Shown here: one piece after another, positions 26,172 to 63,524 of the stretch
Numbering within the stretch: the stretch's first letter is position 1
Layout of the letters: every line of letters begins with the position of its first letter
Source of the DNA: Promethearchaeota archaeon
Lineage (GTDB): Archaea; Asgardarchaeota; Lokiarchaeia; Sigyniarchaeales; SOKP01
NCBI GenBank assembly: GCA_019057795.1
Contig: JAHLWS010000078.1
Location: forward strand, 128,001-192,000
Direction: 5' to 3'
Length of the DNA: 64,000 bases
Translations under genes and position numbers: made by a program
The notes under the pieces: generated by a model
The model's input: only the letters and a program-made list of their open reading frames with translations
Told to the model about the DNA's origin: nothing
Database searches by the model: none

Positions 26172-26254
26172 AATTTTCATCATTGAATCTTTTTTTTTTG
26201 TTCTTTATAAATAACTGTGATAATTGTCTAGTAAATAATTTAAAACAATAAATT

Positions 26255-26869
26255 ATGACGGACAATATTGAAGAACATTATATTGAATCAGAATATGAAG
26301 AAATTTTTAATGATTGGTATGAAATTGAGGGCGCAAGAAAAATAAAAGAACTTTCACGCCAACTCCGAACTTTTTTCAATTACAAGACAGAATTAATAAG
26401 ATATCGATTTCGATCCAGTCCAAATCTTGCCGAAAATTATACAAATAATAAATTTTTTGCTCAAAAACAAAAGATTGAATCATTATCTGATGAATTTATA
26501 ACCCTTTTAAAAAAAATTAAGAAACATAGACAATCCCTTGAACAAGTAATTCGTTCTCTATTTTTTAATAATAATAAAACAGTATTAAACAAACTTTCAG
26601 AAATCACAGAGAAGTTGTCCATTCTACTCCACTATTTCTCAGAGGAATGCATTCATGATCATCCAAGATTCCTCAAATTCATCGTTGTATTAGCACAAAA
26701 CATTTGTTTGGTGAAAATGTGCTTGTATGCTGAATTCAGCGAATTTTATGGGGAACTTGAAGTTAACTACAATGGTTTAAATGGAGAAATGGAGATAATA
26801 TTAGAAGAAACGCTAGGAGATAAAATTAAAAAAACAAAAAATCAACTTGAGGAGAGATTGAGGATATGA
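26255..26869 (+). CDS. Cassette ORF-A, conserved helical protein of unknown function (copy 1)
   Basis: YEEIFNDWYEIEG.RKIKELSRQLRTFFNY shared by three copies; ATGA overlap with ORF-B. Confidence 0.85.
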   Translation: MTDNIEEHYIESEYEEIFNDWYEIEGARKIKELSRQLRTFFNYKTELIRYRFRSSPNLAENYTNNKFFAQKQKIESLSDEFITLLKKIKKHRQSLEQVIRSLFFNNNKTVLNKLSEITEKLSILLHYFSEECIHDHPRFLKFIVVLAQNICLVKMCLYAEFSEFYGELEVNYNGLNGEMEIILEETLGDKIKKTKNQLEERLRI

Positions 26870-29283
26870 AGGCATACACAAATGTATCACGGAAAACAGT
26901 GGAAGAGGATCGAGTAGCAGTCTGCCCAAATTTTGGGTGTGAGTTTATGACACGAGTTAAACCACTTAAGTTAAAGTTCTTAGGTTTTAGTAAGCATCCT
27001 AAATGCAAGAAACATCACATCCCTTTAGTTTACATAGATGAAAGGATCGGGGATTTCGTGGATGCTGCATTAGTATGCTTGTTTGATAAAGCAGGACTCC
27101 CACCACGTGAATTACTCGAGGGAGTAAAATCAAAATTCCCCAATGAAATTACCTCGTTTATAGAAGGATGGGTGTATAGCATCACGGTTGGAAGGGGAGC
27201 TCCCATTGTATCACGTTACATGGATGCCGTTTCGAATGCATATCTCAAGCAATTAACCAAAAAACAGATAAAATCATTGAAAAAAGGAAATAATTCAAAA
27301 CCAAATCTCGTGAAAAAAGCAATTAAGGATGGTCTGGATGAAATTGCACTTCAATATACAAGACTACTTAAGCATCTTAGAGCCCATTCCGAGATCCTCA
27401 TTGATCATCAAAGACTTAAATCACTTTCAAGAAGTCTCCAAAATTATTTGAATGATTGGCATAAGGATATTTTAAAGTATAATGAAATCATAATTTTCTC
27501 AGAAAATAAGCAAGAAATGACTTTAAAAGATATCAAGTGCAAATATGATCAAATTCTTAATGTTGGCACCTGTCGATGCCTTCTTGGATTAAATCCAGAA
27601 AGTAAAAAAATTAAGAAAACAAAATTAACTGCGTTTGATCGGTTTTCCGCTTATATAGAATTTTTTTCTGAAAGTATTACTGAAAAATTTACTAAGTCCG
27701 ATATTAAAGGACTTAACTCAGATATTAATCCAATTAAAAAGTCAATAAAAAAAATGAAATCGTACGATAATTTTGAAAGTGGTAATAGTCAAAAGATTAA
27801 GGAATATTTAAAAAATCTTGATTGGGAGAATTTAACTAACAATTGGACATTATTACATAGAGAACATCATACACATCCTTACAAGGAAATTCTGCTTGAT
27901 CCTCATAAAGATCCTTCCAATGAAAATCCTTTATGGAAACACGAAATTTGGTTGAAGCGAGTTTATGCTGATGAAAATTATAATTTTTCAGATAGTCTTA
28001 TTTCTCGAATCACTGGTATTGCTCGCGACACAGTCAGAAAATACCGTAGGAAATTTAATATTAGCAATGGCTACTACAACACGACTCAAAAACCAAAACT
28101 TAGTAAAGAATTGATTGAGAAAAGGGAGAAAATTCGCAATTTTAATTGGAACATTAATATTGATTGGATGATACCCGTCGGGATTCATGGAGATTTGTCA
28201 ATTCTTAACCCAAACAAATATTGTAGTTTTGATAATCCTTTATACAAGCATAAGCTATGGTTAAAAAGAGTCTACGAAGATGAAGAGCTTGATTTGAATG
28301 GAGTTGAGATTGCCAAAATATGCAGTCTTAAAGATCAGAAACCTATTAGTTATTGGAGAAAAAGATTAGGGATACCTAAAAAAAGAAAAGGTATTTTTCT
28401 AAATAAGTCAGGACATAAGTTGGTTCTCACTCCAAATTCCTATATACACCCTCAGCGTGGTAGACTCTATCAACGTGCTGAACATACACTAATCATGGAA
28501 AGATATTTAAATAAAAATCTATCAAGACGCCAATTAGCAACACATCCGGATTTGATTCAGGGATGGTTAGGAGAAGAGGAGTATTTTTATATAAAAAAAG
28601 ATTGTCATGTTCACCATATCAATTTTGTAGGTTTAGATAATAGAATCGAGAATCTTTGGTTATTTTCAAGTAATCGCGCACATGGATTAGTGGTTAATGA
28701 GCTACATCAATGCCTTTCAATTTTGATTAAGTTACATCAAATATTTTTTAAAGAGGGCATGTATTTTCTAAATGAAGATTTTGATTGTCTTCAGTTAGAA
28801 AGAGATGATATTCGGAGTAAGTTAAATCTTAATATTGTAATAAACCACTCTCTCTCTCGATTTTATGATAAGCGAAGAAATTCTTTTAGTGTAGCGATGT
28901 CTGCCTCCTATAACAATCCCTTTATTTCTCCAAAAAAAGGAATTGATTATGTTTATATGTATGAACATAGATATATCATCGAGCAATATTTTAGGACGCT
29001 TTTAAGAAAAGAGACTATATTACTAGAGGAGCACATTGATTATCAAAAAGCTCAAGAATTCATAAATCCACAAGGGTTTTTAAAACCCGATGCTATCGTG
29101 CACCATGTAAATTTCGATTCTCGAGATAATCGGTTATTAAATTTATATGTGTGTGAAATTTCTGAACATAGGCTTGTTCATGGATTAATTTACCAATTAG
29201 TCGAAAGATTACTTGATATGGGATTGATATATTTCAGTAATGGGAAATATTTTTTGGATAACACTTTGACTAATAAAATGTGA
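26866..29283 (+). CDS. Cassette ORF-B copy 1: constant Zn-finger N-terminus, 2 HTH-like modules and 2 HNH modules
   Basis: CPNFGC...CKKH; EH...VHHINFVGLDNRIENL and EH...VHHVNFDSRDNRLLNL. Confidence 0.85.
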   Translation: MKAYTNVSRKTVEEDRVAVCPNFGCEFMTRVKPLKLKFLGFSKHPKCKKHHIPLVYIDERIGDFVDAALVCLFDKAGLPPRELLEGVKSKFPNEITSFIEGWVYSITVGRGAPIVSRYMDAVSNAYLKQLTKKQIKSLKKGNNSKPNLVKKAIKDGLDEIALQYTRLLKHLRAHSEILIDHQRLKSLSRSLQNYLNDWHKDILKYNEIIIFSENKQEMTLKDIKCKYDQILNVGTCRCLLGLNPESKKIKKTKLTAFDRFSAYIEFFSESITEKFTKSDIKGLNSDINPIKKSIKKMKSYDNFESGNSQKIKEYLKNLDWENLTNNWTLLHREHHTHPYKEILLDPHKDPSNENPLWKHEIWLKRVYADENYNFSDSLISRITGIARDTVRKYRRKFNISNGYYNTTQKPKLSKELIEKREKIRNFNWNINIDWMIPVGIHGDLSILNPNKYCSFDNPLYKHKLWLKRVYEDEELDLNGVEIAKICSLKDQKPISYWRKRLGIPKKRKGIFLNKSGHKLVLTPNSYIHPQRGRLYQRAEHTLIMERYLNKNLSRRQLATHPDLIQGWLGEEEYFYIKKDCHVHHINFVGLDNRIENLWLFSSNRAHGLVVNELHQCLSILIKLHQIFFKEGMYFLNEDFDCLQLERDDIRSKLNLNIVINHSLSRFYDKRRNSFSVAMSASYNNPFISPKKGIDYVYMYEHRYIIEQYFRTLLRKETILLEEHIDYQKAQEFINPQGFLKPDAIVHHVNFDSRDNRLLNLYVCEISEHRLVHGLIYQLVERLLDMGLIYFSNGKYFLDNTLTNKM

Positions 29284-29324
29284 TTTCTTATTTCTATCAT
29301 CACATTGGATTAATATTTTAATTA

Positions 29325-29417
29325 ATCGAATACAATACTATTTCTAATTTAAGCGCTATCGAAGATTACGATTTAATAACCGCATAAATACGAGAATTAT
29401 TAACTCGTGAGATGTAA
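29325..29417 (+). pseudogene. Stranded, decaying original 3' end of gene 25526-26128
   Basis: Translates IEYNTISNLSAIEDYDLITA*IRELLTREM*, with an internal stop. Confidence 0.8.
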
Positions 29418-29598
29418 TCCATCTATAAAATGCGGATTAGATAAAGTTTGAATAGTATGTATTATATAAAGATATTATATTGATTCATTAAAATACAAAG
29501 AATTAATTATTTAAATTTAATTGATTAATTAAAATACAAAGAATTAATTATACAGAGTTTTATATTATTTTTAATTAAAAATTTGGAGCGTATGAACA

Positions 29599-30414
29599 AT
29601 GGCTAAGAAGAAAAAATTTTTGATGATGCCTGTAATTCATTCAAAGTTTAACGATAAAACTCTCGAGAATATACTAATCAATAAATCGAGAACTCTCTTA
29701 ACAGAAAAGAAGGGTGCTGTCCCCTCGTTTATTTTTCTTTCTGGAAGTTTTTTTGATGTAAAAGGTTTTGTATACACGGGGCTTCGAGCATGGAAGGGTG
29801 CAGTAAAACCATCAAATAGCGATGAAGGTAGAAGGCCATTACTTGAAGCTACTTTCGCTTCTCTTTCAGTTTATCTAAGTTCATTACTTGCTCTACAAGC
29901 AGATTTTTACTTCGCTTACGAAGAGATCAAAGACATATTATTAGAAAAGAAAAGGGAAGATCTATGGACTATTGTATCAGAAAAATTACCATTTATTTCA
30001 CTCCCTCCAAAAGAAATGTATGGAAGCCAAGTTTCGCCAATATCTCCATACTTTGTAATCGAACAAGATGATGAACTCATATTAGGGGAGATATATCCAT
30101 CGGCTTATTTAACAAAAGTTATCTCTTCTATTAAGACCAGATTTTTCGTGTTTTTCCAGTATCAAGGATATTCCGCTTTTGGATTTTTCGATTCTTTACC
30201 TAAACATGCTAAGTTTGGTTTTGAGGAAAAAGCGAGAGAGTTTGAAGAAGAACCTACATCAGAAAACCTACAAAAGTATGCTAATAATGCTAAAAATTTA
30301 AAAGAAGTTCTAATCGCGCTCATCGAAGCGCATAATAATGCGTATTTAGGACAGTATTTAATTGAGGATTACGAACTCCTATTAAATAAACTACTAGAAT
30401 CGGAGGACCTATAA
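29599..30414 (+). CDS. Hypothetical protein, operonic with the small GTPase
   Basis: 271 aa; 1-nt gap to the GTPase start. Confidence 0.7.
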   Translation: MAKKKKFLMMPVIHSKFNDKTLENILINKSRTLLTEKKGAVPSFIFLSGSFFDVKGFVYTGLRAWKGAVKPSNSDEGRRPLLEATFASLSVYLSSLLALQADFYFAYEEIKDILLEKKREDLWTIVSEKLPFISLPPKEMYGSQVSPISPYFVIEQDDELILGEIYPSAYLTKVISSIKTRFFVFFQYQGYSAFGFFDSLPKHAKFGFEEKAREFEEEPTSENLQKYANNAKNLKEVLIALIEAHNNAYLGQYLIEDYELLLNKLLESEDL

Positions 30415-30415
30415 A

Positions 30416-31048
30416 ATGGTGAATATTGGGCTTTTGGGTGATATCTCTGTCGGAAAAACTAGTATTCTCCGTTTATTCGTAAGATATTTAAAAGTTGGTG
30501 ACATAGAAAAAGTTAAGGGGGGACAAAAATGTACAGTAATAAAAGCAGATTTTTCAGGAGAGGCAACAGTGCCGGGAGGAGATAAAGAAGATAAACTTAA
30601 TCAAAAAGAAACGAAAACAATCCATCCAAATAGGATTGTTTTTAGAGAAGATAAATCGGGAAAAGCACATACAATCTTCGCACCAGGAGGAGATCGGAAA
30701 CGAAGTGTAATTCGAATGGGAATTATAACGATATCCCGAATCGCAACCCAGATAATAGCGATCTTTTCGTGCGATAGAGATGTAAAAACTCAATTTGAAT
30801 TTTTCAACGATGTTCGATTTTTCCCAGATAAAATTAATCTTTGTATAAATAAAGTAGATTTACTTAAAGGCGATAAAAAGAATAAACTAGAGAAATTGGA
30901 AACAGAAATTATAGATTTTTTTAAGACAAGAAAAATACAAATAGTAGAGACCTTTATAACATGTGGTGAAAGTGTGGAAGGGTTTGAGGATGTCCAGATT
31001 TATAACGACCGCGTCGTAGAGATGATCCTAAGAATTATTACTCAATAA
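30416..31048 (+). CDS. Atypical small GTPase (C-terminal half probably cassette-supplied)
   Basis: G1 GDISVGKT, G4 NKVD; G3 position reads FAPGG. Confidence 0.8.
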   Translation: MVNIGLLGDISVGKTSILRLFVRYLKVGDIEKVKGGQKCTVIKADFSGEATVPGGDKEDKLNQKETKTIHPNRIVFREDKSGKAHTIFAPGGDRKRSVIRMGIITISRIATQIIAIFSCDRDVKTQFEFFNDVRFFPDKINLCINKVDLLKGDKKNKLEKLETEIIDFFKTRKIQIVETFITCGESVEGFEDVQIYNDRVVEMILRIITQ

Positions 31049-33680
31049 CCAGTTTAAGTGGCATGGTAGAATCTCTGATCTTTTTCTGGAATTTGCGGGA
31101 CTCTTCTTCGATTTTTCATTGTTCTCTGATTCTTCTGGAAATGGGGGCTAAAACCCCGAAATTTTTCTTTTTACTCTTCATAATTTAAATAATATTTACC
31201 CTTCTTGAAAGAGAGTAAACCAGATTGTATTAGCGGGCTAACGGTGTCTAATAAGCTCGCATGTACAGAATTGTGCCCCTTATGTTCTTCACAAACCCAT
31301 AAGTTTTTTAATCGATTATCTAGGGTAACAAGGTTGATATGATGAACTTTATATTCTGATTTTAAGAATTTTCCATCAAGAAGGCTATTTTGAGAGATCC
31401 CCAATTCAAGATGTTTCGCTAAATAGTTTTCTATTACATAGCGATGTTCAAGCATTATATTTTGTCTACTGAGCTTTATTGCGAATGGGTTTTTGTAATC
31501 ATTTGGTATTTTTCTCCATATACGATCACCAGCGCTCTCGCTTCTCTTAATGGTGCGAATATTTCCCCATCGTTCATAATAAGTTGGAATTTTATGATGA
31601 TTCCATCTCCATTTATATGCTGTGGACTCTGAAATGCCGCATACTTTCGCGAGCCGTGGATCTGTCAAGTTATATTGTTTTTCTCTGACGATGGTTTCCA
31701 TCCAAAACTTATTTCTATAAAGTGGATTTTCTTTTGAGCAGTCCTTGTAGGGATCAACTGTCATACTAACTTGTCCATATTGATTAGAATTTTTCCACAC
31801 ATTCCAATCGTTAGGGACATGATCCCAATCGAGTGTTTTTATTTGGTGTTTTATTTCTTTTATACTCATATCACCTTTAAATTCAGCAGGCTTAATTATT
31901 TCCTTAATTTCTGAGAGATCTAGCGTTTTATAATCGAATTTGTAGTTTACATTGTATTTTCCCTCATTAAATTGGATTTGACTAAGTTTATATAAGCAAC
32001 TAAAGCAATCATTTAAGCTTCTCTGAGCACCACTATGTTCAGATTTAGTTTCATAAAGCCAAAGGTTTTCTAATCTATTGTCATTAGGAATGTGGTTGAT
32101 GTGATGAACTTCACATTCACTTTTTAAATATTTTCCATCGATAAGATATTTTTTGGATATGTCCGATTCAGGATTTTCTTTTAAATAATTTTCCATTACC
32201 ACATCATGTTCTTTTCGCCTTATTCTTCCTGATGAGTTTTGTGTTAATTCAGGATGACGGTAATCCTTTGGCATATATAATTCTACATATCCCTTATCAT
32301 TAATATACCGTCCTATTTCTGCTTTAGTTGGTATATCCAACTTTTTTCGCCAATTACCGATGGTTTTATGACTTAGGTTGTAAAGTTCGCCGATTTTTCG
32401 ATCACTTAAATCTAATCTATCATCATTATAAATACGATTAAGCCATTTTTCGCTTTTATATAAAGGATTTTTTTTAGAGCAGTCTTGTGTTGGATCAAGA
32501 TTAATAGGATTTCCAGTTCTTCGGTCGATGATGGTCCAATCGGGAAATTCTTCAACCCACTCTAAGTTTTTAATGTATTCTTTTATCCGTTCTTTCCCAT
32601 CAATTGCTTTCTCTTCGGTGATATTATCACTCAAATCTTGGGAAATATCACTATTCTCTAAATTATCATTTCTGAAGTTGTCATTTACATTATCAAATTC
32701 CTTATTGAAATTTTCATCATCAAGATTTACTTCAAAATCTTTTAACCAATCTAAATCATCAATCTCATTATTTTCAGAATTTTTATCATAATCTTTTAAC
32801 CAACTTAAGTCATCAAAATCTAAACTTTCTTCTTTACCACGGATTTCCACAATTTTATCATCTTTTAGGCTCTCTTCGAATTTATTGCCCATTTCATGAT
32901 TATTTGTTCCGTCTTCAATCCATTCTGCGAATTCTTTATGAATTCTATTTTGTTCCTCTAATGTATCTTCTAGATCTTCTAAAAAATCCTTATTTGTATC
33001 ATTTTCCTTGAATTCACTATCAACCTCTTTTGAATCATCTAAACCTTCATCAAATCCATCTTCAAACATCCTATTATCATCTATATCTTTGTTTTTATAA
33101 TCCTCTAATTCTTTAGCAGGAAATTTGTTGAGGATTGTCTGTAATTCTAATTTTTCCACCTCTGTTAAATTTTCAATCTGAGTCAGTTTAATGATTTTTG
33201 ATTTTTCACTTAATTCCATTTGGTCATTTTTATACAAATTATCTCTTAAATATTCATTAAAATTAAACATATTAGCATTATCTTCATTTAATATTACCTC
33301 TATTATCTCTTCTTTTTTAAACTCCATAGAATCTTCTTGGTGAATTCCTCTGGGAATATCAATTTTAGATTCTTGGTTAGGATCATTTTGATCAATTTCT
33401 TTGAGTTTTTCCTCAATTTTTTCATTTGGATTCCATTTTTCATTTAAACTGACTTCTATTTCCTGATTTGTTTCTAAATCATTATTATCATTCTTAATTT
33501 CATCCTTTTCTTTTTTAATTTCGCGAACACCATAATTATTCCAATCACTACCAAATTCGTTCAAAAGAGAGTCACATTTACCTTTTTTAGGTTCTTAATA
33601 CAAAATATTTTTAACATATTTAAAAAAAAAATTAGAAAGAATTAATTAAAATTATAAATCAGAATTTAGATCAGATTAAA
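30746..33680. mobile_element. Single-gene HNH cassette with replacement GTPase 3' half; boundaries approximate
   Basis: HNH ORF bracketed by two diverged copies of the GTPase C-terminal ~100 codons. Confidence 0.8.
31171..33564 (-). CDS. Free-standing HNH endonuclease: long acidic N-terminus plus (HTH-HNH)x2
   Basis: KEH...VHHINHIPNDNRLENLW and LEH...VHHINLVTLDNRLKNLW. Confidence 0.85.
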   Translation of the reverse strand: MNEFGSDWNNYGVREIKKEKDEIKNDNNDLETNQEIEVSLNEKWNPNEKIEEKLKEIDQNDPNQESKIDIPRGIHQEDSMEFKKEEIIEVILNEDNANMFNFNEYLRDNLYKNDQMELSEKSKIIKLTQIENLTEVEKLELQTILNKFPAKELEDYKNKDIDDNRMFEDGFDEGLDDSKEVDSEFKENDTNKDFLEDLEDTLEEQNRIHKEFAEWIEDGTNNHEMGNKFEESLKDDKIVEIRGKEESLDFDDLSWLKDYDKNSENNEIDDLDWLKDFEVNLDDENFNKEFDNVNDNFRNDNLENSDISQDLSDNITEEKAIDGKERIKEYIKNLEWVEEFPDWTIIDRRTGNPINLDPTQDCSKKNPLYKSEKWLNRIYNDDRLDLSDRKIGELYNLSHKTIGNWRKKLDIPTKAEIGRYINDKGYVELYMPKDYRHPELTQNSSGRIRRKEHDVVMENYLKENPESDISKKYLIDGKYLKSECEVHHINHIPNDNRLENLWLYETKSEHSGAQRSLNDCFSCLYKLSQIQFNEGKYNVNYKFDYKTLDLSEIKEIIKPAEFKGDMSIKEIKHQIKTLDWDHVPNDWNVWKNSNQYGQVSMTVDPYKDCSKENPLYRNKFWMETIVREKQYNLTDPRLAKVCGISESTAYKWRWNHHKIPTYYERWGNIRTIKRSESAGDRIWRKIPNDYKNPFAIKLSRQNIMLEHRYVIENYLAKHLELGISQNSLLDGKFLKSEYKVHHINLVTLDNRLKNLWVCEEHKGHNSVHASLLDTVSPLIQSGLLSFKKGKYYLNYEE

Positions 33681-33986
33681 ACTCAGATTATAGCTGTATT
33701 TTCTTTGGATCGTAAACTTGAAAGACAATTTGAATTTTTCAACGATGTCCGCTTTTTTCCTGATCATATACATGTGTGCATCAATAAGATTGATTTACTT
33801 GAGGGAGACAGAGATAAAGGTTTAGAAGATATTAAAAGCAAGATTACTAACTTCTTCAAACAAAGAAAAATAACGGTTTCTGACTATTTTATAACTTGCG
33901 GTGAAACTGTGTCCAATTTTGAAGAGGTTGAGGAATACAACAACCATGTTGCCGAGATGATTTTAGAGATAACAATACCTCGTTAA
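33681..33986 (+). pseudogene. Stranded original 3' half of the small GTPase
   Basis: TQIIAVFSLDRKLERQFEFFNDVRFFPD...NKID...FITCGE matches 30746-31048; no P-loop. Confidence 0.85.
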
Positions 33987-34010
33987 AGCAATAAATTTAT
34001 GATTTTTCTC

Positions 34011-34526: not shown

Positions 34527-34538
34527 TTTTTTTTAACC

Positions 34539-38686: not shown

Positions 38687-38697
38687 TCATCCCTTAT

Positions 38698-41120: not shown

Positions 41121-41191
41121 TAAATCGATAAATATAAATCTATAACATTTTAAGGTTTCTTTACGCTCAAATCGACAACCTTAAATTTGAA
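41121..41191 (+). promoter_or_regulatory. arsR-acr3 intergenic promoter/operator (second copy at 45682-45752)
   Basis: TAAATCGATAAATATAAATCTATA...TCAAATCGACAACCTTAAAT conserved colinearly in both copies. Confidence 0.65.
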
Positions 41192-41243
41192 GTACAACTT
41201 TTATCAAATAATAATTATTCAATCTTAAAGGAATTAAGTAAAA

Positions 41244-42330
41244 ATGAAATCAGAAGAACCAAAAGAAGAATCAAAAAAAATTAGTTATTTTGAAAAACTT
41301 CTTCCGTTATGGGTCGCATTATGTATAATAGCGGGCATTATTCTTTCTCAGCTCATCCCTGAAATAAGCGAAGCTATTAATTCTTTACAAATAGGAGGAA
41401 TTTCTATTCCCATTGGAATCTGCTTATTCCTGATGATGTATCCCGCTATGTTGAATCTTCAATTTTCTGAGTTGAAAAAATTAGGTAAAAACCCAAAACC
41501 AATTATATTAACGCTTATATCTAATTGGGTCGTTGCTCCTTTCGTAGGGTTAGCAATGGCAAACATTTTTTTACCTGGATATGAACAGTTAATAGTTGCA
41601 ATCATTCTTCTAAGTTCAAGCCCATGTACTGCTATGGTCCTAATCTGGGGCTGGATGGCAAGAGGGAATCAAGAACAAAATGTAATTAATACTAGTTTAA
41701 ATACGATAACTATCATAATCGGTTATGTCCCTTTAGTCGCATTATTAACAGGCATTAAAAATATTCCTATAGATATCTTTCTTTTGTTGATTTCTTTGGT
41801 GTTTTTTATAGGAGTACCATTATTATTGGGTATAGTTAGTAAAAAAATTATTATTTCAATAAAAGGAGATGCTTGGTTTAACGATGTCTATAGACCAATT
41901 GTAGGAAAAGTTTCGATTGTAGCACTATTAACGACTTTAATTGTTCTTTTTTCCCTAAATGGAACTGTCTTGATAAATAATCCTGATCTGTTGCTCTTAA
42001 TTTCTATACCTCTTTTAGTGGGATTTGTAATTGTTGTTAGTTTTAATATATTAATTACAAAACTCTTTAAGTTGAGATATGAGGAAGCTGTTATTACGGT
42101 TATAATAGGGTCTTCAAGTCATTTTGAAATAGCTATTGCTACTGCGATTGCTATGTATGGGATTGGCTCTATTGCGGCATTAGGAACTACCATGGGACTA
42201 TACGATTCTTAGTTTTACTATGAACGGGTCATTCTGGGAAGTTCCTGTGATGCTATCGATTGTATATTTGGGAGGATACTTAGGAAAACGAGGATTTTGG
42301 GAGAGTTCAAAGAGTAGGATTGAGAAATAA
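41244..42330 (+). CDS. acr3: Acr3 arsenite efflux transporter; predicted join(41244..42201,42233..42330), 351 aa
   Basis: LMMYPAM, SNWVVAP, SPCTAMV, SSHFEIAIA; the last helix FWEVPVMLSIVYL is in frame only after removing 31 nt. Confidence 0.85.
42202..42232 (+). other. Predicted 31-nt BHB mRNA intron in acr3
   Basis: Helix GACT(42196-99)/GGTC(42227-30), bulges ATA and ATT, inner hairpin; cuts after bulge nt 2 give ATG GGA CTA TTC TGG GAA. Confidence 0.75.
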
Positions 42331-42412
42331 ATAATAATTTTAAATTTTTTTTTACCTTTAATTCTAGGAATATGCTAAACTCATTTCGTTAATAAAATAG
42401 AAAAGGGATTAT

Positions 42413-44971
42413 TTAGATAAATCTTATTATATCACCAAAAGTTTGCCTTAGCTTGTCGATTTGTTTCAGATCTCTCCAATTACATTTAGGAAGTTTTCTA
42501 AGACGATAATTATTCACTTTAAATAATTTCCTTACTTGTTGCTCAAACTCAGAATGTATGAATTCTACGTAGTTATCTCGTCTTATTGTATGATCTACAA
42601 TAATATAAATATCAATATATCCACTATTTTTTAGATTTTGTTTAAAATTATCACTAGATTTTAAATGTTTATAATCGTTGGCATGGGATCCATTTCTAGG
42701 AGTTCTATGCCTGAATCTATCAACATATTCTTCTAGTGAAAAATGCTCGCGATCCCAATATTCCCCTGCAACGCTTAGAGTAAATACATCTTTTCCAATT
42801 TTTATATCGACATAAGCAAAAGCATCAAAATGCATGTGTCTATATCTCCGTAATGATTTATAATCGCTAGGCAAAATATCAACAACCTGATCAAAAGGAA
42901 GAACTTCATATAATGAAGTTGGCCTTTCACCAAAATTCTTATGAAATAATCTTGAAAGTAAATAGCGCATTATCCTTTCATTCGTTATTTTACCTCCCGA
43001 ACATATATCACATGATTTTAGATCTAAACTATAATCATCAGGTTTAGATTTAAATTTAAAACTTGGATGATACTTACAAGACCATAGAAAAACTTCTCTG
43101 GTTGGCTGTTTTAACTTCTCAATATGACTCAACGGGGTTTCCAGATTAAAATTAAATTTATCACCCCGAGCAATTATTTGTTGGCTCGTTAATCTATGAC
43201 TTTCATTATAACATTCAGCACACCAATTATTATAAGATCTAATACGTTCCATGCTAATGCTAAATTCTCCATGTTTATTACAAATAAATGGGAACAGTAT
43301 TTCTGAGACCTTTTGTTGTATATTGCGCGGTTTCTTTAATTCTTGATTTATTCGAGTTTTAAATTCAGTTTTAGTAAATTTAAATCTTGCATTTCTTAAT
43401 TCCGCTTCTTTAACAAAATCTTGATATGAATGGGACTTTTCAATTCTTGAACATAGAGGACATTTAGCGCGATATAAATGTTTGTAAGCAACATTAAATT
43501 TTTCATGGTTGGAACATTTACAAGAAAGTTCAAATAATAAGTTTTCTATTAGAGTTCCTGTCAGCACAGTTTCTAAATATTCAAATATTTTCGTCTCCAT
43601 ATTAAGTCCTAAAGTATTGATTCTACTACAATAGGAATTCCATTTCTCAATTAAGCTAAAAACACGCTTTTCAGCACAAATTAATTTGTAATCAAGTATT
43701 AAATTAAAAAAAACAGTATAATTGCTTGGAAATTCTTGTTTCAGATTAAAAAACCAATTATCTAAAACTTTTTCATCTATTAAGGAGTTAGGTCTCTTAA
43801 ATTTATTAGATTTCAAAGTAGCGAAAGCTAAAGCTTCAGAACCATTAGATGTACCATATAATTTCTCGGCAATTCTATTATCTGGTAAATCTTCTTGATA
43901 TAATTTTATTTGTTTCACTAAATTTACAAGAAAATCTTTCGATATGGAACTACTATTCTTTATATTTGGAAATTGATTCTTAATAAATTCCTTATAATGC
44001 TCTAAAGCTAAAACTTCGATTTTTTTGATTTTTCTTGGTCGATTTTCATTGGTTTGCTTCATGGAATCAAAACCTTCTTTTTCTTTTGGTTTACAATTTT
44101 CTAAATCCACAAATCTTTTTATAAGTTTAATCACATCAGATTTAGTAAATTTCGGAGTTAGCCCATTAGTATAAAATTCATGATATGCAGAAAATCTATC
44201 AAAAGCAGTTACCTTTGATTTCTTAATTTCTTTATTTTCAGGATTTAATCCGAGAAGGGATCTACACGTACCAATGTTTAGGATTTTATCATAATTACTC
44301 TTGATTTCTTTTAAAGTCAGTTCGGTTTTATTTTCTAACGATTTTATTACCTCAATGCCCTTTATTATTTCTTTTTGCCATTCTTTCAAGAAATTTCGAA
44401 GGTTTTTAGAAAGCGGTTTAAGATTTTCATACTCAGAAAAGATTTTCGAATGAACTCGAAGGTGCTTAAGTATCCTCTTATATTGGATGGTTATTTCATC
44501 CATTCCATGTCTAATTGCCTTATTCACGAGATTTGGTTTAGAACTTTCTCCTTTTTTTAGTGCTTTAATCTGTTTTTTAGTCAATTGCTTGAGATATGTA
44601 TTCGAAACCGAGTCCATGTAATATGAAACTATAGGAGCTCCCCTTCCTATTATGATACAATATACCCATCCCTCTATGAACGGGGTAGTTTCATGGGGGA
44701 ATCTTGATTTTACACCCTCAATTAATTCTTGTGGAGGAAGTCCTGCTTTATCAAACAAGCATGCTAACGCAGCATCCACGAAATCACCAATCCTTTCATT
44801 AACATAGACTAAAGGAATGTGATGTTTCTTACATTTAGGATACTTCCCAAAACCAAAAAATCTTAATTTAAGAGGTTTAACTCTAGTCATGAACTCACAC
44901 CCAAAATTTGGACAGATTGCGACTCGATCTTCTCTCACTGTTTTTCGTGATACATTGGTGTATGCTTTCAT
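42413..44971 (-). CDS. Cassette ORF-B copy 2: constant N-terminus, Zn-ribbon repeats and Vsr/PD-(D/E)XK-like nuclease
   Basis: C..H...C..C repeats; NERIMRYLL...HFDAF...VAGEYWDREH. Confidence 0.75.
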   Translation of the reverse strand: MKAYTNVSRKTVREDRVAICPNFGCEFMTRVKPLKLRFFGFGKYPKCKKHHIPLVYVNERIGDFVDAALACLFDKAGLPPQELIEGVKSRFPHETTPFIEGWVYCIIIGRGAPIVSYYMDSVSNTYLKQLTKKQIKALKKGESSKPNLVNKAIRHGMDEITIQYKRILKHLRVHSKIFSEYENLKPLSKNLRNFLKEWQKEIIKGIEVIKSLENKTELTLKEIKSNYDKILNIGTCRSLLGLNPENKEIKKSKVTAFDRFSAYHEFYTNGLTPKFTKSDVIKLIKRFVDLENCKPKEKEGFDSMKQTNENRPRKIKKIEVLALEHYKEFIKNQFPNIKNSSSISKDFLVNLVKQIKLYQEDLPDNRIAEKLYGTSNGSEALAFATLKSNKFKRPNSLIDEKVLDNWFFNLKQEFPSNYTVFFNLILDYKLICAEKRVFSLIEKWNSYCSRINTLGLNMETKIFEYLETVLTGTLIENLLFELSCKCSNHEKFNVAYKHLYRAKCPLCSRIEKSHSYQDFVKEAELRNARFKFTKTEFKTRINQELKKPRNIQQKVSEILFPFICNKHGEFSISMERIRSYNNWCAECYNESHRLTSQQIIARGDKFNFNLETPLSHIEKLKQPTREVFLWSCKYHPSFKFKSKPDDYSLDLKSCDICSGGKITNERIMRYLLSRLFHKNFGERPTSLYEVLPFDQVVDILPSDYKSLRRYRHMHFDAFAYVDIKIGKDVFTLSVAGEYWDREHFSLEEYVDRFRHRTPRNGSHANDYKHLKSSDNFKQNLKNSGYIDIYIIVDHTIRRDNYVEFIHSEFEQQVRKLFKVNNYRLRKLPKCNWRDLKQIDKLRQTFGDIIRFI

Positions 44972-45576
44972 GAAGTCAATCTCTCCTCGAGTTGTTTTTT
45001 TGGATTTCTTATCTTTACTCTTGGTGCTTTTTCTAATAGACTCTCTAATTCTCCTTCTAAACTATGGTAGTTTATTCTAAGTTCCTCATAAAACTCGCTG
45101 AATTGTATATGTAAGCACTTTTTCACTAAACATATGTTTTTTGCCAATACAACTACGAATTTGAGTAAGCTTAGATGATCATGAATGTTCTCATCCGAAA
45201 AATAGTGAATTAAAATGGATATTTTTTCTGTTATTTCTGAAAGTCTGATTATGGGTGTTCTATTATTGTTAAAAAATAGAGATCGTATCCCTTCCTCAAG
45301 AGTTTGAGTGCTGTTTTTTAATTTCTTAAGCATTGTTATGAATTCATGGGTTAATGTTTCTAATTCTTGCTTTCGACTGAAAAATTTATTGTTTCTATAA
45401 TTTTCAGCAAGATGGGGATTGGTCCAAAATCGATATCTTATCACTTCCATCCTATAATTAAAAAAAGTTCGGAGTTGACGTGAAAGTTCTTTTATTTTTC
45501 TTACACCCTCAATCTCATACCAATCATTAAAAATTTCTTCATAATCAGTTTCAAAATCTTCCATATACTCTGTCAT
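44968..45576 (-). CDS. Cassette ORF-A copy 2
   Basis: Homologous to 26255 and 59548; ATGA overlap with ORF-B. Confidence 0.85.
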   Translation of the reverse strand: MTEYMEDFETDYEEIFNDWYEIEGVRKIKELSRQLRTFFNYRMEVIRYRFWTNPHLAENYRNNKFFSRKQELETLTHEFITMLKKLKNSTQTLEEGIRSLFFNNNRTPIIRLSEITEKISILIHYFSDENIHDHLSLLKFVVVLAKNICLVKKCLHIQFSEFYEELRINYHSLEGELESLLEKAPRVKIRNPKKQLEERLTS

Positions 45577-45681: not shown

Positions 45682-45752
45682 TAAATCGATAAATATAAAT
45701 CTATAGCATTTTAAACTGTGATGTAGGTCAAATCGACAACCTTAAATGTGAA
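45682..45752 (+). promoter_or_regulatory. Second copy of the ars promoter/operator, facing the hgcA-like genes
   Basis: 71-nt colinear match to 41121-41191. Confidence 0.65.
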
Positions 45753-45809
45753 ATATTATACTATATATTGAACCATCATAATATGAAGAGTTAATTCAAA
45801 AATTTGATT

Positions 45810-45884
45810 GAAGTACCTGTGATGTTATCCATAGTTTACTTAGGAAGATATCTTAAAAAGCGAGGATTTTGGAAATCCAATTGA
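45810..45884 (+). pseudogene. Stranded original acr3 3' end
   Basis: EVPVMLSIVYLGRYLKKRGFWKSN*, ending 21 nt before the next ORF. Confidence 0.85.
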
Positions 45885-47963: not shown

Positions 47964-47994
47964 AAACAAATTTAAAATTTAAATTAGATTAAAT

Positions 47995-51906: not shown

Positions 51907-52176
51907 TTCATAATCACTTTTTTAGATAAATTTTTGTTTAACACTATCTAATTCAGATAAACATATATTTAAAGATTTAGAATTTTTTCATTAACACTAA
52001 TCAATATTTGAGAAATAAACAATCTTCAATTTTGTCCAAATTAAATATGAATAAGTTTTTTAAATAATGAAGTCAAATTATTTTTAATATAATTTATTAT
52101 TTGTATTAGATAATTGACTATTAAGTAAATATTGAATGATATTTTATTTAGCTAAAATTAATGGTGTTGATTTTAA

Positions 52177-53046: not shown

Positions 53047-53072
53047 TTAGAAAAAAATAGAGTTTAAAAAAG

Positions 53073-54104: not shown

Positions 54105-54134
54105 TGTTAATAAAATAATATGTAAAATTTTAAT

Positions 54135-55590: not shown

Positions 55591-55601
55591 GGTGATAAAA
55601 A

Positions 55602-56948: not shown

Positions 56949-57028
56949 ATTCTTACTCATTTTCTTTCAAAAATAAATTAAAATGAAAGGATGTAAAATT
57001 AATATAATTAAAATAGAAGGTTTGAAAA

Positions 57029-58714: not shown

Positions 58715-58810
58715 TCTGAGATATTACCCAACTCTTACATTTTATAACTATTTTTATTTTAACAATTTATTTTTTAATTAAACCAATTTTTTCATTTCTA
58801 CTCTTATATT

Positions 58811-59401
58811 ATGAATGTAGACGAAATACTTTCAGCTGTAAGAACTTTCGCATATAATAATTCTGAAAATGACGATCTCCATGGTTTTAAACATGTTGAG
58901 CGAGTACTTAATTTATGTGTGCAAATAGGGACTGCTTTAAATGCGAATTTATTAGCAATTAAAATAGCTGCCTTACTTCACGATGTTGGTAGAATTCATG
59001 AGAAAAAAAATGCTGCAAAGAATCACGCTGAGTTATCCGCTGAAATGGCTGAAAAATTTTTACAAAAAACTAACTTCAATATTAACATTGACGATATTGA
59101 AAATATTATTCACAGCATTCGAGCGCATTCTTTTTCGAATAAAATAAAACCTACAACTCTTGAAGCAAAAATATTGTCGGACGCAGATAAACTAGACACG
59201 CTTGGAGCAATAGGTTTATACAGGACAATTATATATTCATTTAAATTGAAAAATGGTGGAATAGAGAAAGTAATTGAACATTTAGAAAAAAAAATAATAA
59301 AATTAAAAGATCGAATGTATTTAGACATTTCAAAAGAAATAGCAAAAGAAAGACAGAAAATTATCTTAGATTTTTATTATGAAATAAAAAAGGAAGTGTA
59401 A
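58811..59401 (+). CDS. HD-domain hydrolase (C-terminus probably cassette-supplied)
   Basis: HGFKHVERV, LLHDVG, DADKLD. Confidence 0.85.
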   Translation: MNVDEILSAVRTFAYNNSENDDLHGFKHVERVLNLCVQIGTALNANLLAIKIAALLHDVGRIHEKKNAAKNHAELSAEMAEKFLQKTNFNINIDDIENIIHSIRAHSFSNKIKPTTLEAKILSDADKLDTLGAIGLYRTIIYSFKLKNGGIEKVIEHLEKKIIKLKDRMYLDISKEIAKERQKIILDFYYEIKKEV

Positions 59402-59547
59402 TATCTAAATTTTTATACTTTTTTGAAAACCACCTTCATTTTTCTTTCCTTTCAAGTCCTATATTCGAACATAAAACTTCTTGTCACAATTTGTTCTTTA
59501 AATATAACTATCATAATTAGGTAGTAAAAGAATTATGATAATAAATT

Positions 59548-60159
59548 ATGACAAACTATATTGAAGATTCTTATATTGGATCAGAATATGATGATATTTT
59601 TAATGATTGGTATGAAATTGAGGGCGCAAGAAAAATAAAGGAACTTTCACGCCAACTCCGAACTTTTTTCAATTATAAGGCTGAAGTAATAAGATATCGA
59701 TTTCGACCCAGTCCGAATCTTGCCGAAAATGATACAAACACTAAATATTACAGTCGAAAGCAAGAAACTGAATCATTAACTCGTGAATTCATAATCTTGT
59801 TAAAAAAGCTTAAGAAAAATGGACAAACACTTGAGCAAGGGATTCAATCTCTCTTTATTTTCAATGATAAAGCACATTTTAATAAACTTTCAGCCATAAC
59901 TGAGAAATTATCCATGTTACTTCACTATTTTTCAGAAGAAAGCCTTTACATTCATCCTAAATTTCTCAAATTTAGCGTGACATTAGCACAACACCTTTGT
60001 TTAGTGAAAAAATGCTTGAATGCGCAATTTAGCGAATTTTTTGAGGAACTTGAAATAAATTACAACAATTTAGAAGAAGAACTTGAAGACTTAATCGAAA
60101 TCACGCCAATTAAGAAGCAAAAATTAAAAAAGCAACTTGAGGAGAGATTAACTTCATGA
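59548..60159 (+). CDS. Cassette ORF-A copy 3
   Basis: Homologous to the other two copies; ATGA overlap with ORF-B. Confidence 0.85.
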   Translation: MTNYIEDSYIGSEYDDIFNDWYEIEGARKIKELSRQLRTFFNYKAEVIRYRFRPSPNLAENDTNTKYYSRKQETESLTREFIILLKKLKKNGQTLEQGIQSLFIFNDKAHFNKLSAITEKLSMLLHYFSEESLYIHPKFLKFSVTLAQHLCLVKKCLNAQFSEFFEELEINYNNLEEELEDLIEITPIKKQKLKKQLEERLTS

Positions 60160-63100
60160 AAGCATACACAAACGTATCACGGAAAACCGTGGGAGAGGAT
60201 CGAGTAGCAATCTGCCCTAATTTTGGATGCGAGTACATGACACGAGTTAAGCCTCTTAAATTTAAGTTCTTAGGTTTTGGGAAGCATCCTAAATGCAAGA
60301 AACATCACATTCCTTTAGTATTTGTTGATGAAAGAATCGTTGATTTCGTGGATGCTGCCCTAGCGTGCTTGTTTGATAAAGCAGGACTCCCCCCAAGTGA
60401 ATTACTCGAGGGTGTAAAATCAAAATTTCATAATGAAGTTACCTCGCTTGTAGAAGGATGGGTGTATTGCATCACGGCTGGAAGGTGTGTGTCCATTATT
60501 TCACGTTACATGGATACGATTTCTAATGCGTATCTCAAGCAATTAACTAAGAAACAAATTAAGGCACTTAAAAAGGGAGATGATTCAAAACCAAATCTCG
60601 TGAATAAGACGATTAAGGGTGGAATTGATGAAATTACTATTCAATATACGAGGATTCTCAAGCACCTGAGAGCTCATTCCGAGATTCTCATTGATCATCA
60701 AACGCTTAAATCACTTTCTAAAAACCTCCGAAATTATTTGAAGGATTATCAAAAGACCATATTAAAGCGCAATGAGATCATTAATTCTCCAGAAAATAAG
60801 CGCGAAATGAGTTTAAAAGAAATCAAGAGTAATTATGATCAAATCCTAAACGTTGGGACATGCCGTTGTCTTCTTGGATTGAATCCCGAAAGTAAAGGAA
60901 TCAAGAAAGCAAAAATAACTTCATTTGATAGATTTTCTGCTTATCTTGAATTTTTTAGTGAAGGATTAACTGGAAAATTTACAAAATCCGCAATCTGTGA
61001 TTTAGTAAAAACTAAGTTCACTTATCAAGATAATATTGATATACTTGATGAGACAAAATATAAAATACCCTTTCAAAATCAAAAACCTAAAAGTATCATG
61101 ACAGTTAAATGCACTCAAGAAGAACTTCTAGGCAAAATTTTTAAGTTCGGGGAATCTCTACAATTAGGAATTTTAACGATATATTATATTTGTGATATAT
61201 TTCCAAAAAAGAATGAAATTGATAAGTTATTTTTTTCTGGAAAGGAATTAAGTCAGATTCTTAGCAGATCAGAATATTTTTTTAATAATATTAGAAGGGA
61301 ACTGTTAGACGAAAATTTTGTTCAATACTGCGGAACAATTTCTAAAAAAAAACATAGCTTTGTAAAAATTTATACAATTACAAAACAAGGCGCAGATTTT
61401 GCAGCGGAAATTATTGAGTCAAAAATACAAGAATTTTCTAATCTTTTTAATGATTTAACCCTCAGATTAGAACAGCGATATAAAGAATTAATGTCCTCAG
61501 AAAATAACATTGTTATTCGTTCAATAGAAGAAATCAACAATGATTTAAAAAAAAAAGCTGAAGAAAACAATGCTAAAATGCTCACTACATACAAATCTGA
61601 TGAAAATAAAATAATTTTTAGATGTAAGGGATGCAATAAAGAATTTAAAGATATATACAAGAATATGAAAAGAAGACAAGAACCAAAAATAGCTTGCCCT
61701 TTCTGTTTTCCAGAATTAAGACCTAACACTTATATTCCTGAAGAATTAAGAGAAAAAATAGCAAAATATGTTTTAGTTGAATTAAGACAAATTACTATTT
61801 ACAATTTAGTAGAAAAGGAAATTTTAGAAAATATAGTTTCTATAAGAGATTCTGTTTTCAGACAAATAGAAATCAAAAAGGTTCCGATTTTAGACAATAG
61901 AATTCAAGCTGATGCCGATTTTAGACAATATATTAAGAATTATATTCAACTTATCGTTAAGCTTCTTATAAAAATAAAATTATTAAATGAGACCAAACAA
62001 AAAATAAATATTACTGAAGTAGCAAAAGAAACTTATGATAAAAATATAGTTTCCTTAAAATCTTGGGTGGTTTTTTCAACGAAGATTATTCAGTATTTAA
62101 GACAAAATCTTGATTTTAATATTAGATCACGTTATCATGATACATTCCAAAAATCTACTCAAGTATCGATTAGGAATTTTAGGAATTTGTATAAATTAAT
62201 TGATGATATTACAATTACTTATTTGAAAAAAGATTTACAGATGAAAATAGATATTCATTACAATGGAATATGTCAAGGAAATAATGGAACTTGTCAATTC
62301 AATATTGATTACAGATTCTTACCTGCTCTCTCCCATCACCATCTACTCAAAAGTTACAAAAAACTCATAACAAGAAAAGAATTTAAATATATCCTTCCTC
62401 ATACTATTCTAAACTTAAAATTTGAGAGAGCTATTAAATTAATGCAGACTCAAATTGGTGGATTAGGTTTAGCATGTCTGAATTGCCATTTTTCTAAACA
62501 TCATGTAATATATAATTTTTCACCGATTTTTACATTTCTTCAGAAACTATCCTTAGAAAATATCAATGAAAATCCATTAGATGTTTTAATCAAATTGAAG
62601 TCATTAGTAAGCATATATTACAACCAAAAAAAAGAAAAAACTAAAATGTCTAAAAATTACACTCAAGCTCAACAAAAAACAATGATAAAAGATGGTATTA
62701 GAAAATCGACTTTAGCATTCGTTAAAAAAAAATATAGTATTCAGTTTCTATTTGGAAATGATTATGTTTGTCCTATTTGTCGAAAAGCTAATATTAATGA
62801 ACACCTCAATTGTTTTGTTGCTCATCATACTAATGAAGATATTTTTAGAGATGATCTTGAGAAAATAGAATTTGGTAAAGAATATAAAAAAAAGGATATT
62901 GATTGGTTAATTGAAAATCTAATTATTCAAGAATGTGTGTTTATTTGTATAAATTGTCATCAAATGCTTCATGCTGTAAATTTTCGAGATTATGCTCTTA
63001 CTATCTTGGAAAGTAAAACCGATGAGATATTTGTAAGGAATTATTATAGTCAATTAGACAAACAGATAAGTAAATTAAAAAATAGAATCTTAATTTTAAA

Positions 63101-63524
63101 AAAAAAAATTGAAAATCATTTGATTCAAATTCCAAATCCGTTACAGTTAATTTTTGAAAAGGGAGACGGTTTAAAGAGAAATTTAATATGTATTTACTAT
63201 ATTTGTGAAATTTTTTCAAAAGATAAAGAGAATCCTTTCTTTACTTCTGGTGAGTTGAATTTTATTATTAATAAGGTGCGTTCATTTAGGAATTTTAAAC
63301 ATAAATTAATTCATCTTGATTATATACAAGCTGTTGAGAATTTTCAAAGAATTTATCATATTACTCCTAAAGGTAAGGAAAAAGCAAGAGAATTGATTAA
63401 TCAAAAATTAAATGATTTTCCGAAAAGATTCAGAGATTTAATTGATATTTGGGAAAATAATTACGTAAAATATCAGCTAAAGATGAAACAAAATAAGTAT
63501 TTTTTTGGAAAAGAAATTTTATAA
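60156..63524 (+). CDS. Cassette ORF-B copy 3: constant N-terminus, wHTH, Zn ribbon, two HNH-like modules and wHTH
   Basis: LSHHH...ACLNCHFSKH; CPIC...VAHH...ICINCHQMLH; YTITKQG and YHITPKG winged helices. Confidence 0.75.
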   Translation: MKAYTNVSRKTVGEDRVAICPNFGCEYMTRVKPLKFKFLGFGKHPKCKKHHIPLVFVDERIVDFVDAALACLFDKAGLPPSELLEGVKSKFHNEVTSLVEGWVYCITAGRCVSIISRYMDTISNAYLKQLTKKQIKALKKGDDSKPNLVNKTIKGGIDEITIQYTRILKHLRAHSEILIDHQTLKSLSKNLRNYLKDYQKTILKRNEIINSPENKREMSLKEIKSNYDQILNVGTCRCLLGLNPESKGIKKAKITSFDRFSAYLEFFSEGLTGKFTKSAICDLVKTKFTYQDNIDILDETKYKIPFQNQKPKSIMTVKCTQEELLGKIFKFGESLQLGILTIYYICDIFPKKNEIDKLFFSGKELSQILSRSEYFFNNIRRELLDENFVQYCGTISKKKHSFVKIYTITKQGADFAAEIIESKIQEFSNLFNDLTLRLEQRYKELMSSENNIVIRSIEEINNDLKKKAEENNAKMLTTYKSDENKIIFRCKGCNKEFKDIYKNMKRRQEPKIACPFCFPELRPNTYIPEELREKIAKYVLVELRQITIYNLVEKEILENIVSIRDSVFRQIEIKKVPILDNRIQADADFRQYIKNYIQLIVKLLIKIKLLNETKQKINITEVAKETYDKNIVSLKSWVVFSTKIIQYLRQNLDFNIRSRYHDTFQKSTQVSIRNFRNLYKLIDDITITYLKKDLQMKIDIHYNGICQGNNGTCQFNIDYRFLPALSHHHLLKSYKKLITRKEFKYILPHTILNLKFERAIKLMQTQIGGLGLACLNCHFSKHHVIYNFSPIFTFLQKLSLENINENPLDVLIKLKSLVSIYYNQKKEKTKMSKNYTQAQQKTMIKDGIRKSTLAFVKKKYSIQFLFGNDYVCPICRKANINEHLNCFVAHHTNEDIFRDDLEKIEFGKEYKKKDIDWLIENLIIQECVFICINCHQMLHAVNFRDYALTILESKTDEIFVRNYYSQLDKQISKLKNRILILKKKIENHLIQIPNPLQLIFEKGDGLKRNLICIYYICEIFSKDKENPFFTSGELNFIINKVRSFRNFKHKLIHLDYIQAVENFQRIYHITPKGKEKARELINQKLNDFPKRFRDLIDIWENNYVKYQLKMKQNKYFFGKEIL

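Follow-up and report, generated by a model that had tools for sequence, protein, structure and literature searches.

Homing endonucleases are the textbook minimal selfish genes, with one protein dedicated to one site. Free-standing (intron-less) homing endonuclease genes are represented in T4-like phages by the seg and mob genes (PMC2988022, PMC2790892), and fungal mitochondria contain free-standing homing-endonuclease open reading frames (ORFs) bordered by partial duplicates of the C-terminal ends of cob and atp6 (PMC6279837; also PMC7487136). Here we describe a two-gene cassette found in a window of 64,000 nucleotides (G000:C78:128001-192000, the whole stretch of DNA analyzed) in a 4.95-Mb, ~30% G+C Lokiarchaeial (Asgard) assembly. 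Asgard archaea are the closest prokaryotic relatives of eukaryotes. Three copies of the cassette lie in the window and three more lie elsewhere in the genome, and each consists of ORF-A (~205 amino acids) and ORF-B. The first 281 residues of ORF-B, here called the N-domain, are constant and are followed by a variable half. We consider it probable (roughly 0.6) that these cassettes are free-standing homing-endonuclease elements of Lokiarchaeial chromosomes that are built on a portable two-protein chassis.

ORF-A and ORF-B overlap by ATGA in all six pairs of the genome, which bears out what an earlier reading of this DNA from its letters alone (the sequence-only reading) had reported for the three window copies. 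A block of ~1.51 kb is common to these three copies at 78–81% nucleotide identity by BLASTN (26197-27708, 45630-44126, and 59490-60990). It starts ~58 nucleotides 5' of the ORF-A ATG, in a stretch with a TATA-like TTTAAATA box, and ends directly after the KFTKS codons, at about residue 281 of ORF-B; the break points first proposed (27700, 44140, and 60990) are correct to within ~15 nucleotides of the block ends. Beyond KFTKS, the ORF-B proteins of the three window copies are unrelated. Copies 4–6, from elsewhere in the genome, share this layout and are more diverged, with N-domain identities of 37–57%. The ORFs are independent and have their own promoter stretch, and no group I or group II intron families were found in the window. 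The parts of the three window cassettes are:

26255-26869 (ORF-A) and 26866-29283 (ORF-B), plus strand: cassette 1 ORF pair, 204 and 805 amino acids
26197-27708, plus strand: cassette 1 constant block, with ~58 nucleotides containing the TATA-like TTTAAATA box, ORF-A (26255-26869), and the N-domain (26866-27708)
27709-29283, plus strand: cassette 1 variable half of ORF-B, two helix-turn-helix (HTH)-like units and two HNH_3 modules
45576-44968 (ORF-A) and 44971-42413 (ORF-B), minus strand: cassette 2 ORF pair, 202 and 852 amino acids
44126-45630, minus strand: cassette 2 constant block, with the N-domain (44126-44971), ORF-A (44968-45576), and the promoter stretch
42413-44125, minus strand: cassette 2 variable half of ORF-B, with zinc-ribbon pairs and, from motifs only, a probable PD-(D/E)XK core of the Vsr-like type
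59548-60159 (ORF-A) and 60156-63524 (ORF-B), plus strand: cassette 3 ORF pair, 203 and 1122 amino acids
59490-60990, plus strand: cassette 3 constant block, with the promoter stretch, ORF-A (59548-60159), and the N-domain (60156-60990)
60991-63524, plus strand: cassette 3 variable half of ORF-B, winged HTH (wHTH)-like ends and two CxxC...HH...CxxCH HNH-type modules

The variable halves resemble nucleases of several classes. Copy 1 contains two HNH_3 stretches along with HTH-like units and also matches several phage HNH families. Copies 3 and 5 each match a PHROG HNH family (E 4.6e-4 and E 1.5e-12, respectively) and contain paired CxxC...HH...CxxCH motifs. Copy 4 contains LAGLIDADG_3, and copy 6 contains a GIY-YIG domain (26.8 bits against a Pfam cut-off of 22.6 when the domain is scanned alone) that precedes an array of HTH units. 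Copy 2 has zinc-ribbon CxxC pairs and a core, HFDAF...AGEYWDREH, that is probably a Vsr-type PD-(D/E)XK nuclease. No profile or PDB match was obtained for this half, including with a profile of the copy 2 class, and searching PDB sequences with the copy 2, 3, and 6 variable halves yielded nothing usable. The C-terminal types given in the sequence-only reading thus hold for copy 1 (HTH and HNH) and copy 3 (HNH), while its 'Vsr-like' label for copy 2 has the support of motifs only.

A similar picture emerges from 74 non-redundant C-termini of relatives, which match LAGLIDADG_3 (10), HNH_3 (6), the DUF4379 zinc finger (6), GIY-YIG (4), PDDEXK_5 (1), and RNase_T (1), together with many HTH and wHTH modules and single matches to BRCT_2, an O-methyltransferase-dimerisation family, and a phage tail-chaperone family. 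The sequence-only reading had allowed that most homologs might carry non-nuclease C-termini; the recognizable catalytic domains are instead nucleases, with no other enzyme class among the 25 families listed. In two relatives an Intein_splicing match falls inside the variable half. One relative from the representative search, P0196 (1919 amino acids), has a 1650-amino-acid variable half with only a weak phage tail-chaperone match and may carry a non-nuclease cargo.

The association between the constant half and these nucleases is fluid. Among 162 full-length relatives we distinguished 33 C-terminal classes. Their placement on the N-domain tree requires 66 changes or more, against a minimum of 32 and 109–124 for shuffled labels. 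C-terminal class differs in 62 of the 162 pairs whose N-domains are at least 85% identical, and across 1435 pairs of different class, similarity stops at residues 275–290 in about 70%. Copy 1 and the relative P0013, for example, have N-domains that are 80% identical and variable halves that are unrelated. The class changes on the tree, the class differences between near-identical N-domains, and the sharp end of similarity at residues 275–290 therefore indicate frequent and recent recombination at one fixed joint, and substantiate the earlier proposal of a constant module joined to interchangeable nucleases at a fixed point. Recombination may exchange the nuclease half or convert the constant half among resident cassettes, and the data fit both.

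Two apparent N-domain-only ORFs in one genome (G300) were set aside, as one is cut by a contig end and the other is interrupted by an in-frame stop. In the latter copy (L064:1383-1385, on G300:C73), the stop falls exactly at the junction and separates a 289-amino-acid N-domain ORF from a 422-amino-acid half in the same frame. The downstream ORF is a zinc-ribbon/PD-(D/E)XK-like half, and the copy is either decaying or naturally split.

Comparison with congeneric genomes reveals that the cassettes are polymorphic insertions. Cassette 1 is present in G000 (the genome studied here), G302, and G311, and absent from G307 (flanks 91% identical) and seven other genomes, in which the flanks are joined directly; in these empty alleles a gene-end piece of 63–79 nucleotides matches both sides of the cassette. 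Cassette 2 is present in G000, G302, and G304, and absent from G305, G121, G077, G071, G153, and G113. Cassette 3 is present in G000, G302, and G307, and absent from G304, G311, G310, and more distant genomes. Cassette 4 (LAGLIDADG; L009:4364-7538, on G000:C54) is a precise insertion of ~3.2 kb between a desulfoferrodoxin-like and a rubrerythrin-like gene, both of the oxidative-stress type, and its site is empty in six of the six relatives read, including G302 (right flank 96% identical). Occupancy conflicts among the closest relatives, as G311 has cassette 1 without cassette 3 and G307 has cassette 3 without cassette 1, and several gains or losses are thus needed. Contigs from four sediment or seep metagenomes in Logan were also inspected for cassette 1, and at 26122 and 29324 loose contig ends run into native-type gene sequence. 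Taken together, these contigs cover the variable half less deeply than the flanks, though contigs from mixed populations cannot rank alleles and we draw nothing firm from this.

The family is restricted and patchy in its distribution. Of 301 genomes in the phylum, 17 contain the N-domain, and 16 of these (including this genome) belong to one family; within the genus, 10 of the 27 genomes sampled have it. Each such genome has 1–8 copies. Named relatives from word-index searches are assigned to Promethearchaeota, Lokiarchaeota, or Helarchaeota only, and no relative was found when the N-domain alignment was scanned against IMG/VR viral contigs.

Two cassettes from other, distant assemblies bear on what determines the insertion site. 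The context of P0114 is that of cassette 1, namely a fragment of the 200-amino-acid gene, ORF-A, ORF-B, the same four genes, and finally SMC. With copy 1 it shares 79% identity in the variable half but only 61% in the N-domain. P0047, a member of the copy 2 class, is found at the acr3 3' end in tail-to-tail orientation with that gene and adjoins the same ArsR and DUF2769 genes. On the sequence of these two cases, which are those read outside the genus sample, the insertion site follows the variable half and not the N-domain lineage.

The three window copies adjoin three different genes, each copy lying at the 3' end of its gene or just beyond it, and the host genes are not disrupted. The sequence-only reading was thus right that each copy has its own target gene, but the cassettes lie at the 3' end of an intact gene and not inside it. 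Downstream of ORF-B we found no small co-varying ORF, and orphan gene ends and host genes occupy this position instead. The features that flank the window cassettes are:

25526-26128, plus strand: cassette 1 host gene (200 amino acids, no Pfam family), intact, with its last codon and stop from the junction repeat
26048-26122, plus strand: cassette 1 functional copy of the duplicated gene end, 99% identical to the empty-site allele of the close relative G307
26118-26176, plus strand: cassette 1 non-coding 59-nucleotide repeat, left copy, which recurs at 29460-29518 (93%) and 29501-29559 (80%)
29328-29402, plus strand: cassette 1 orphan gene end, interrupted by an internal stop, which shares 87% identity with the G071/G306 type and 73% with G307
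41244-42333, plus strand: cassette 2 host gene, acr3 (SBF family), with the functional duplicated end at 42238-42300 and a 31-nucleotide insert at ~42195-42225
45682-45755, plus strand: cassette 2, a 74-nucleotide copy (84%) of the acr3-upstream region 41121-41194
45810-45872, plus strand: cassette 2 orphan acr3 3' end
58811-59401, plus strand: cassette 3 host gene (HD domain), the last ~200 nucleotides of which (from ~59200) are 66–78% identical to close relatives (G311 and G310)
63546-63723, plus strand: cassette 3 orphan HD-gene end, 92–98% identical to the empty-site alleles of G311/G304/G310

The duplicated gene ends pair 26048-26122 with 29328-29402 at cassette 1 (75% identity), 42238-42300 with 45810-45872 at cassette 2 (78%), and 59249-59395 with 63546-63692 at cassette 3 (75%). 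Overall, the flanking copies are 71–78% identical in DNA over at most ~180 nucleotides and are conserved in protein. At cassette 1, the outer flanks are 93–99% G307-like (93–97% from 29600 onward), and the orphan end looks foreign by its sequence. At cassette 3, it is the functional end that looks foreign, and the orphan, on its identity to empty-site alleles, is the native end. A foreign-looking gene-end stretch beside cassettes 1 and 3 is what transfer by homologous recombination would leave if flanking DNA were co-converted.

Two small features at the edges of cassette 2 are of separate interest. The 31-nucleotide acr3 insert (42195-42225, to about ±3 nucleotides) contains an in-frame stop and interrupts the gene exactly where its duplicated 3' end begins on the left. 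Both occupied alleles that were aligned (G000 and G302) have it, and the three empty ones (G305, G121, and G077) lack it. Its predicted RNA fold, an outer stem (AGGAACU/AGUUCCU) with an inner hairpin (z −2.3), is as would be seen in a tRNA-type (bulge-helix-bulge, BHB) mini-intron, and the insert may both keep acr3 functional and break the nuclease target site. The 74-nucleotide copy at 45682-45755 lies between cassette 2 and the orphan acr3 end and faces the arsenic methyltransferase gene that lies downstream, and its effect may be to restore transcription past the inserted cassette.

We next consider the constant half. ORF-A and the N-domain belong to no Pfam, NCBIfam, PHROG, or PADLOC family. 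Profile searches of 1.84 billion representative proteins, a step that the sequence-only reading had suggested along with a listing of C-termini, returned only 104 clusters, in all of which the N-domain occupies residues 1–281. Both ORF-A and the N-domain are under purifying selection, with ratios of nonsynonymous to synonymous substitution (dN/dS) among the window copies of 0.17–0.19 for the N-domain and 0.26–0.38 for ORF-A. An AlphaFold run of the N-domain with six sequences (predicted local distance difference test, pLDDT, 56) was discarded in favor of one with 92 sequences (pLDDT 88.9, predicted template modeling score, pTM, 0.85), which predicts a zinc ribbon (invariant C20, C25, C47, and H50) followed by an all-helical bundle. 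Fold searches with this model retrieved generic helical bundles only (best Foldseek PDB E 0.58, VIA wide Z 5.3, ESM Atlas template modeling (TM) score 0.27, BFVD E 0.82), and the protein Atlas gave no usable match for ORF-A. The constant half is thus, by sequence and predicted fold, not a recognizable nuclease or recombinase, and the possibility raised in the sequence-only reading that the N-domain is a known transposase or recombinase finds no profile or fold match.

Charge differs between the two constant parts. The N-domain has a net charge of +16 to +22 in all six paralogs, and the first 25 residues of ORF-A are conserved as acidic, with a net charge of −7 to −10 in all six. Modeling of the ORF-A/N-domain complex, which had also been suggested earlier, gave a score of 0.76 against 0.01 for the best of three controls. 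Of 80 solved complexes 58 attained this level, as did 2 of the 110 mismatched pairs; the score is the model's own confidence on alignments of our own making and not a measurement. Contact agreement among runs was at least 74% and partner pLDDT at least 74, and the predicted interface comprises the most conserved stretches of both proteins. ORF-A is thus predicted to bind the N-domain. The invariant N-domain residues D74, K224, and Y263 lie outside the predicted interface. A PIP-box-like reading of the ORF-A N-terminus (EIFNDWY) was rejected, as its residues fall in the predicted interface and the motif is not kept in copy 6.

The constancy of ORF-A had earlier been taken to make an immunity role unlikely. 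Because ORF-A is predicted to bind the constant N-domain, a constant partner could control any nuclease through this anchor, and the constancy of ORF-A does not settle the exclusion of an inhibitor role.

Homing on a portable chassis would account for these observations as follows. The variable half, with HTH or zinc modules and a core of the HNH, GIY-YIG, LAGLIDADG, or PD-(D/E)XK type, would recognize one conserved site, the 3' end of a host gene or the spacer that follows it, and cut there in genomes without the cassette. Repair from an occupied copy would bring in the cassette along with some flanking donor DNA, and the diverged second gene end left behind would keep the host gene whole while the site ceased to be a target. 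ORF-A and the basic zinc-ribbon/helical N-domain would form a heterodimer that, with its own promoter, makes up the portable chassis, and recombination at the fixed junction would re-pair this chassis with different nuclease modules. In terms of function, the basic N-domain may add general nucleic-acid binding, and ORF-A, anchored on the N-domain and with a conserved acidic tail, may restrain or time a nuclease of any class. From the charge of the N-domain, its zinc ribbon, and the predicted anchoring of acidic-tailed ORF-A, we infer that the chassis controls or assists the nuclease. The more specific proposal that ORF-A and the N-domain form a control or assistance platform that is independent of nuclease class, in which the basic domain engages DNA and the anchored acidic partner gates activity, is offered tentatively, as a possibility that we hold with rather less confidence than doubt.

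One gene in the window bears directly on the role of the chassis:

31171-33564, minus strand: solo HNH gene, 797 amino acids, with unit-plus-HNH modules as in cassette 1 (37% identity, E 4e-40)

In this protein an acidic low-complexity N-terminus replaces the constant domain. The gene is itself an insertion that is absent at the same place in G302 and in contig L066. The surrounding region (G000:C78:122-192 kb) houses four of the six cassettes of the genome and at least this one solo homing-type nuclease gene in otherwise conserved synteny.

Several points weigh against homing on a chassis as we have drawn it. The solo HNH gene inserts without the constant module, so the chassis is apparently not needed for insertion, and homing endonucleases are not known to require a partner or a constant domain. 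The flanking gene-end duplications of the sequence-only reading are found around copies 1–3, whereas none was found around copies 4–6, where we looked for them; the precise, duplication-free insertion of cassette 4 indicates that not every member of the family has a gene-end duplication. Polarity also differs, with the foreign-looking copy being the orphan at cassette 1 and the functional end at cassette 3, and one simple homing scenario thus does not fit both. Occupied sites in the closest relatives could partly reflect vertical descent and loss. Cleavage of empty sites is something we infer, with presumed targets drawn from insertion points only. Finally, the nuclease class of copy 2 is motif-based and unconfirmed by profiles, and the predicted ORF-A contact is a matter of model confidence.

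Three other explanations deserve comparison with the homing-endonuclease one. ORF-B could be a toxic nuclease and the coupled upstream ORF-A a labile neutralizer anchored on the constant domain, such that loss of the cassette kills the cell and the cassette consequently persists, with site-specific homing being secondary. In its favor, type II toxin-antitoxin pairs typically show this gene order and an ATGA overlap, the predicted complex has ORF-A bound to ORF-B, and the conserved acidic tail of ORF-A could mimic DNA. An addiction (toxin-antitoxin-like) module would not by itself explain why there is one chromosomal site per nuclease class, however, and clean empty sites are common in relatives. 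The nucleases, moreover, have long arrays of sequence-reading modules that are typical of site-specific enzymes, and no toxin-antitoxin or defense family was matched. We regard addiction as unlikely, although it is the strongest of the three.

It is more unlikely still that the cassettes serve in anti-virus defense, with ORF-A and the N-domain sensing infection and the swappable nuclease acting as effector, as in defense families with exchangeable effectors. Defense genes would not be expected to show gene-end duplications or a tie between site and nuclease class, and the combination of HTH arrays with LAGLIDADG or GIY-YIG halves marks homing-type enzymes. The cassettes also stand alone, each at the 3' end of a housekeeping gene within conserved synteny and in no island. 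A constant sensor with a variable nuclease is a common defense layout, and the distribution is indeed patchy; yet neither ORF-A nor the N-domain has a PADLOC match, and the weak matches within variable halves include 'homing endonuclease' (copy 4).

Least probable, by a little, is that the constant module is a new recombinase or integrase that inserts the cassette, with the nuclease as cargo or helper and the duplicated ends as remnants of attachment (att) sites: the invariant D74, K224, and Y263 outside the predicted ORF-A interface, the basic N-domain, and insertions at gene 3' ends with a duplicated end, which recall tRNA-gene-targeting integrases, are offset by flanking copies that are 71–78% identical over up to ~180 nucleotides, unlike short identical att cores, by the lack of profile or fold likeness to tyrosine, serine, DDE, or HUH enzymes, by an insertion site that tracks nuclease class and not N-domain lineage, and by a solo HNH gene that is also an insertion without the module.

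The genes that neighbor the cassettes are ordinary chromosomal ones, for an ATP-grasp enzyme, SMC, acr3, an arsenic/corrinoid methyltransferase, an ABC transporter, and an acyl-CoA ligase. We also note a tRNA gene at window positions 6155-6258 on the minus strand (Rfam 49.7 bits, 104 nucleotides) that was missed by ARAGORN and is probably interrupted by an intron.

Approximately 100 Asgard sequence clusters thus share a conserved, selected two-protein add-on, and recombination at a fixed position has combined it with nucleases of four or more unrelated classes. Gene conversion between Asgard lineages is active in these cassettes, one of which is linked to a candidate tRNA-type mini-intron at its edge. 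If the add-on does control or assist the nuclease, it would represent a new layer in selfish-DNA biology and a natural example of plug-and-play retargeting of DNA cutters. Should the platform proposal be correct, this would be the first such accessory system known for homing endonucleases, and one specific to Asgard archaea. These predictions are directly testable with cloned proteins and the empty-site sequences identified here. Judged by title and abstract, we found no paper dealing with the ORF-A/ORF-B family, and a constant pair combined with many site-specific nucleases is, so far as we could find, a build undescribed for homing endonucleases.

A comparison with known systems reveals partial parallels. 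As in type II toxin-antitoxin operons, a small upstream gene with an ATGA overlap encodes a product that is predicted to bind the nuclease protein; in contrast to these operons, the cassettes match no such family, and the predicted partner of ORF-A is a non-catalytic domain. Polymorphic toxins and colicins similarly join a constant N-terminus to an exchangeable C-terminal nuclease through recombination at a fixed junction. Their immunity gene lies downstream, however, whereas the cassettes have none and instead have a constant partner upstream. The cassette N-domain matches no Pfam or NCBIfam family or fold, including no secretion or trafficking domain, and the cassette nucleases are of the homing type and tied to chromosomal insertion sites.

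The free-standing ORFs of fungal mitochondria offer a closer parallel, since a nuclease ORF follows a conserved gene and is in turn followed by a partial C-terminal copy of it, as in cassettes 1–3. These ORFs differ in being organellar and in encoding LAGLIDADG or GIY-YIG enzymes without a shared extra domain or partner gene, and a mosaic, foreign-looking flank was measured for the cassettes here and not in PMC6279837. The T4-like seg and mob genes are likewise stand-alone GIY-YIG and HNH genes that lie in the gaps between conserved genes or at their ends, vary in presence from one relative to another, spread with co-conversion of their flanks, and combine a catalytic core with DNA-binding modules. 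Whereas the phage genes are single and small and have neither a conserved non-nuclease N-domain nor a coupled partner, the cassettes share one chassis among at least four nuclease classes and reside on archaeal chromosomes.

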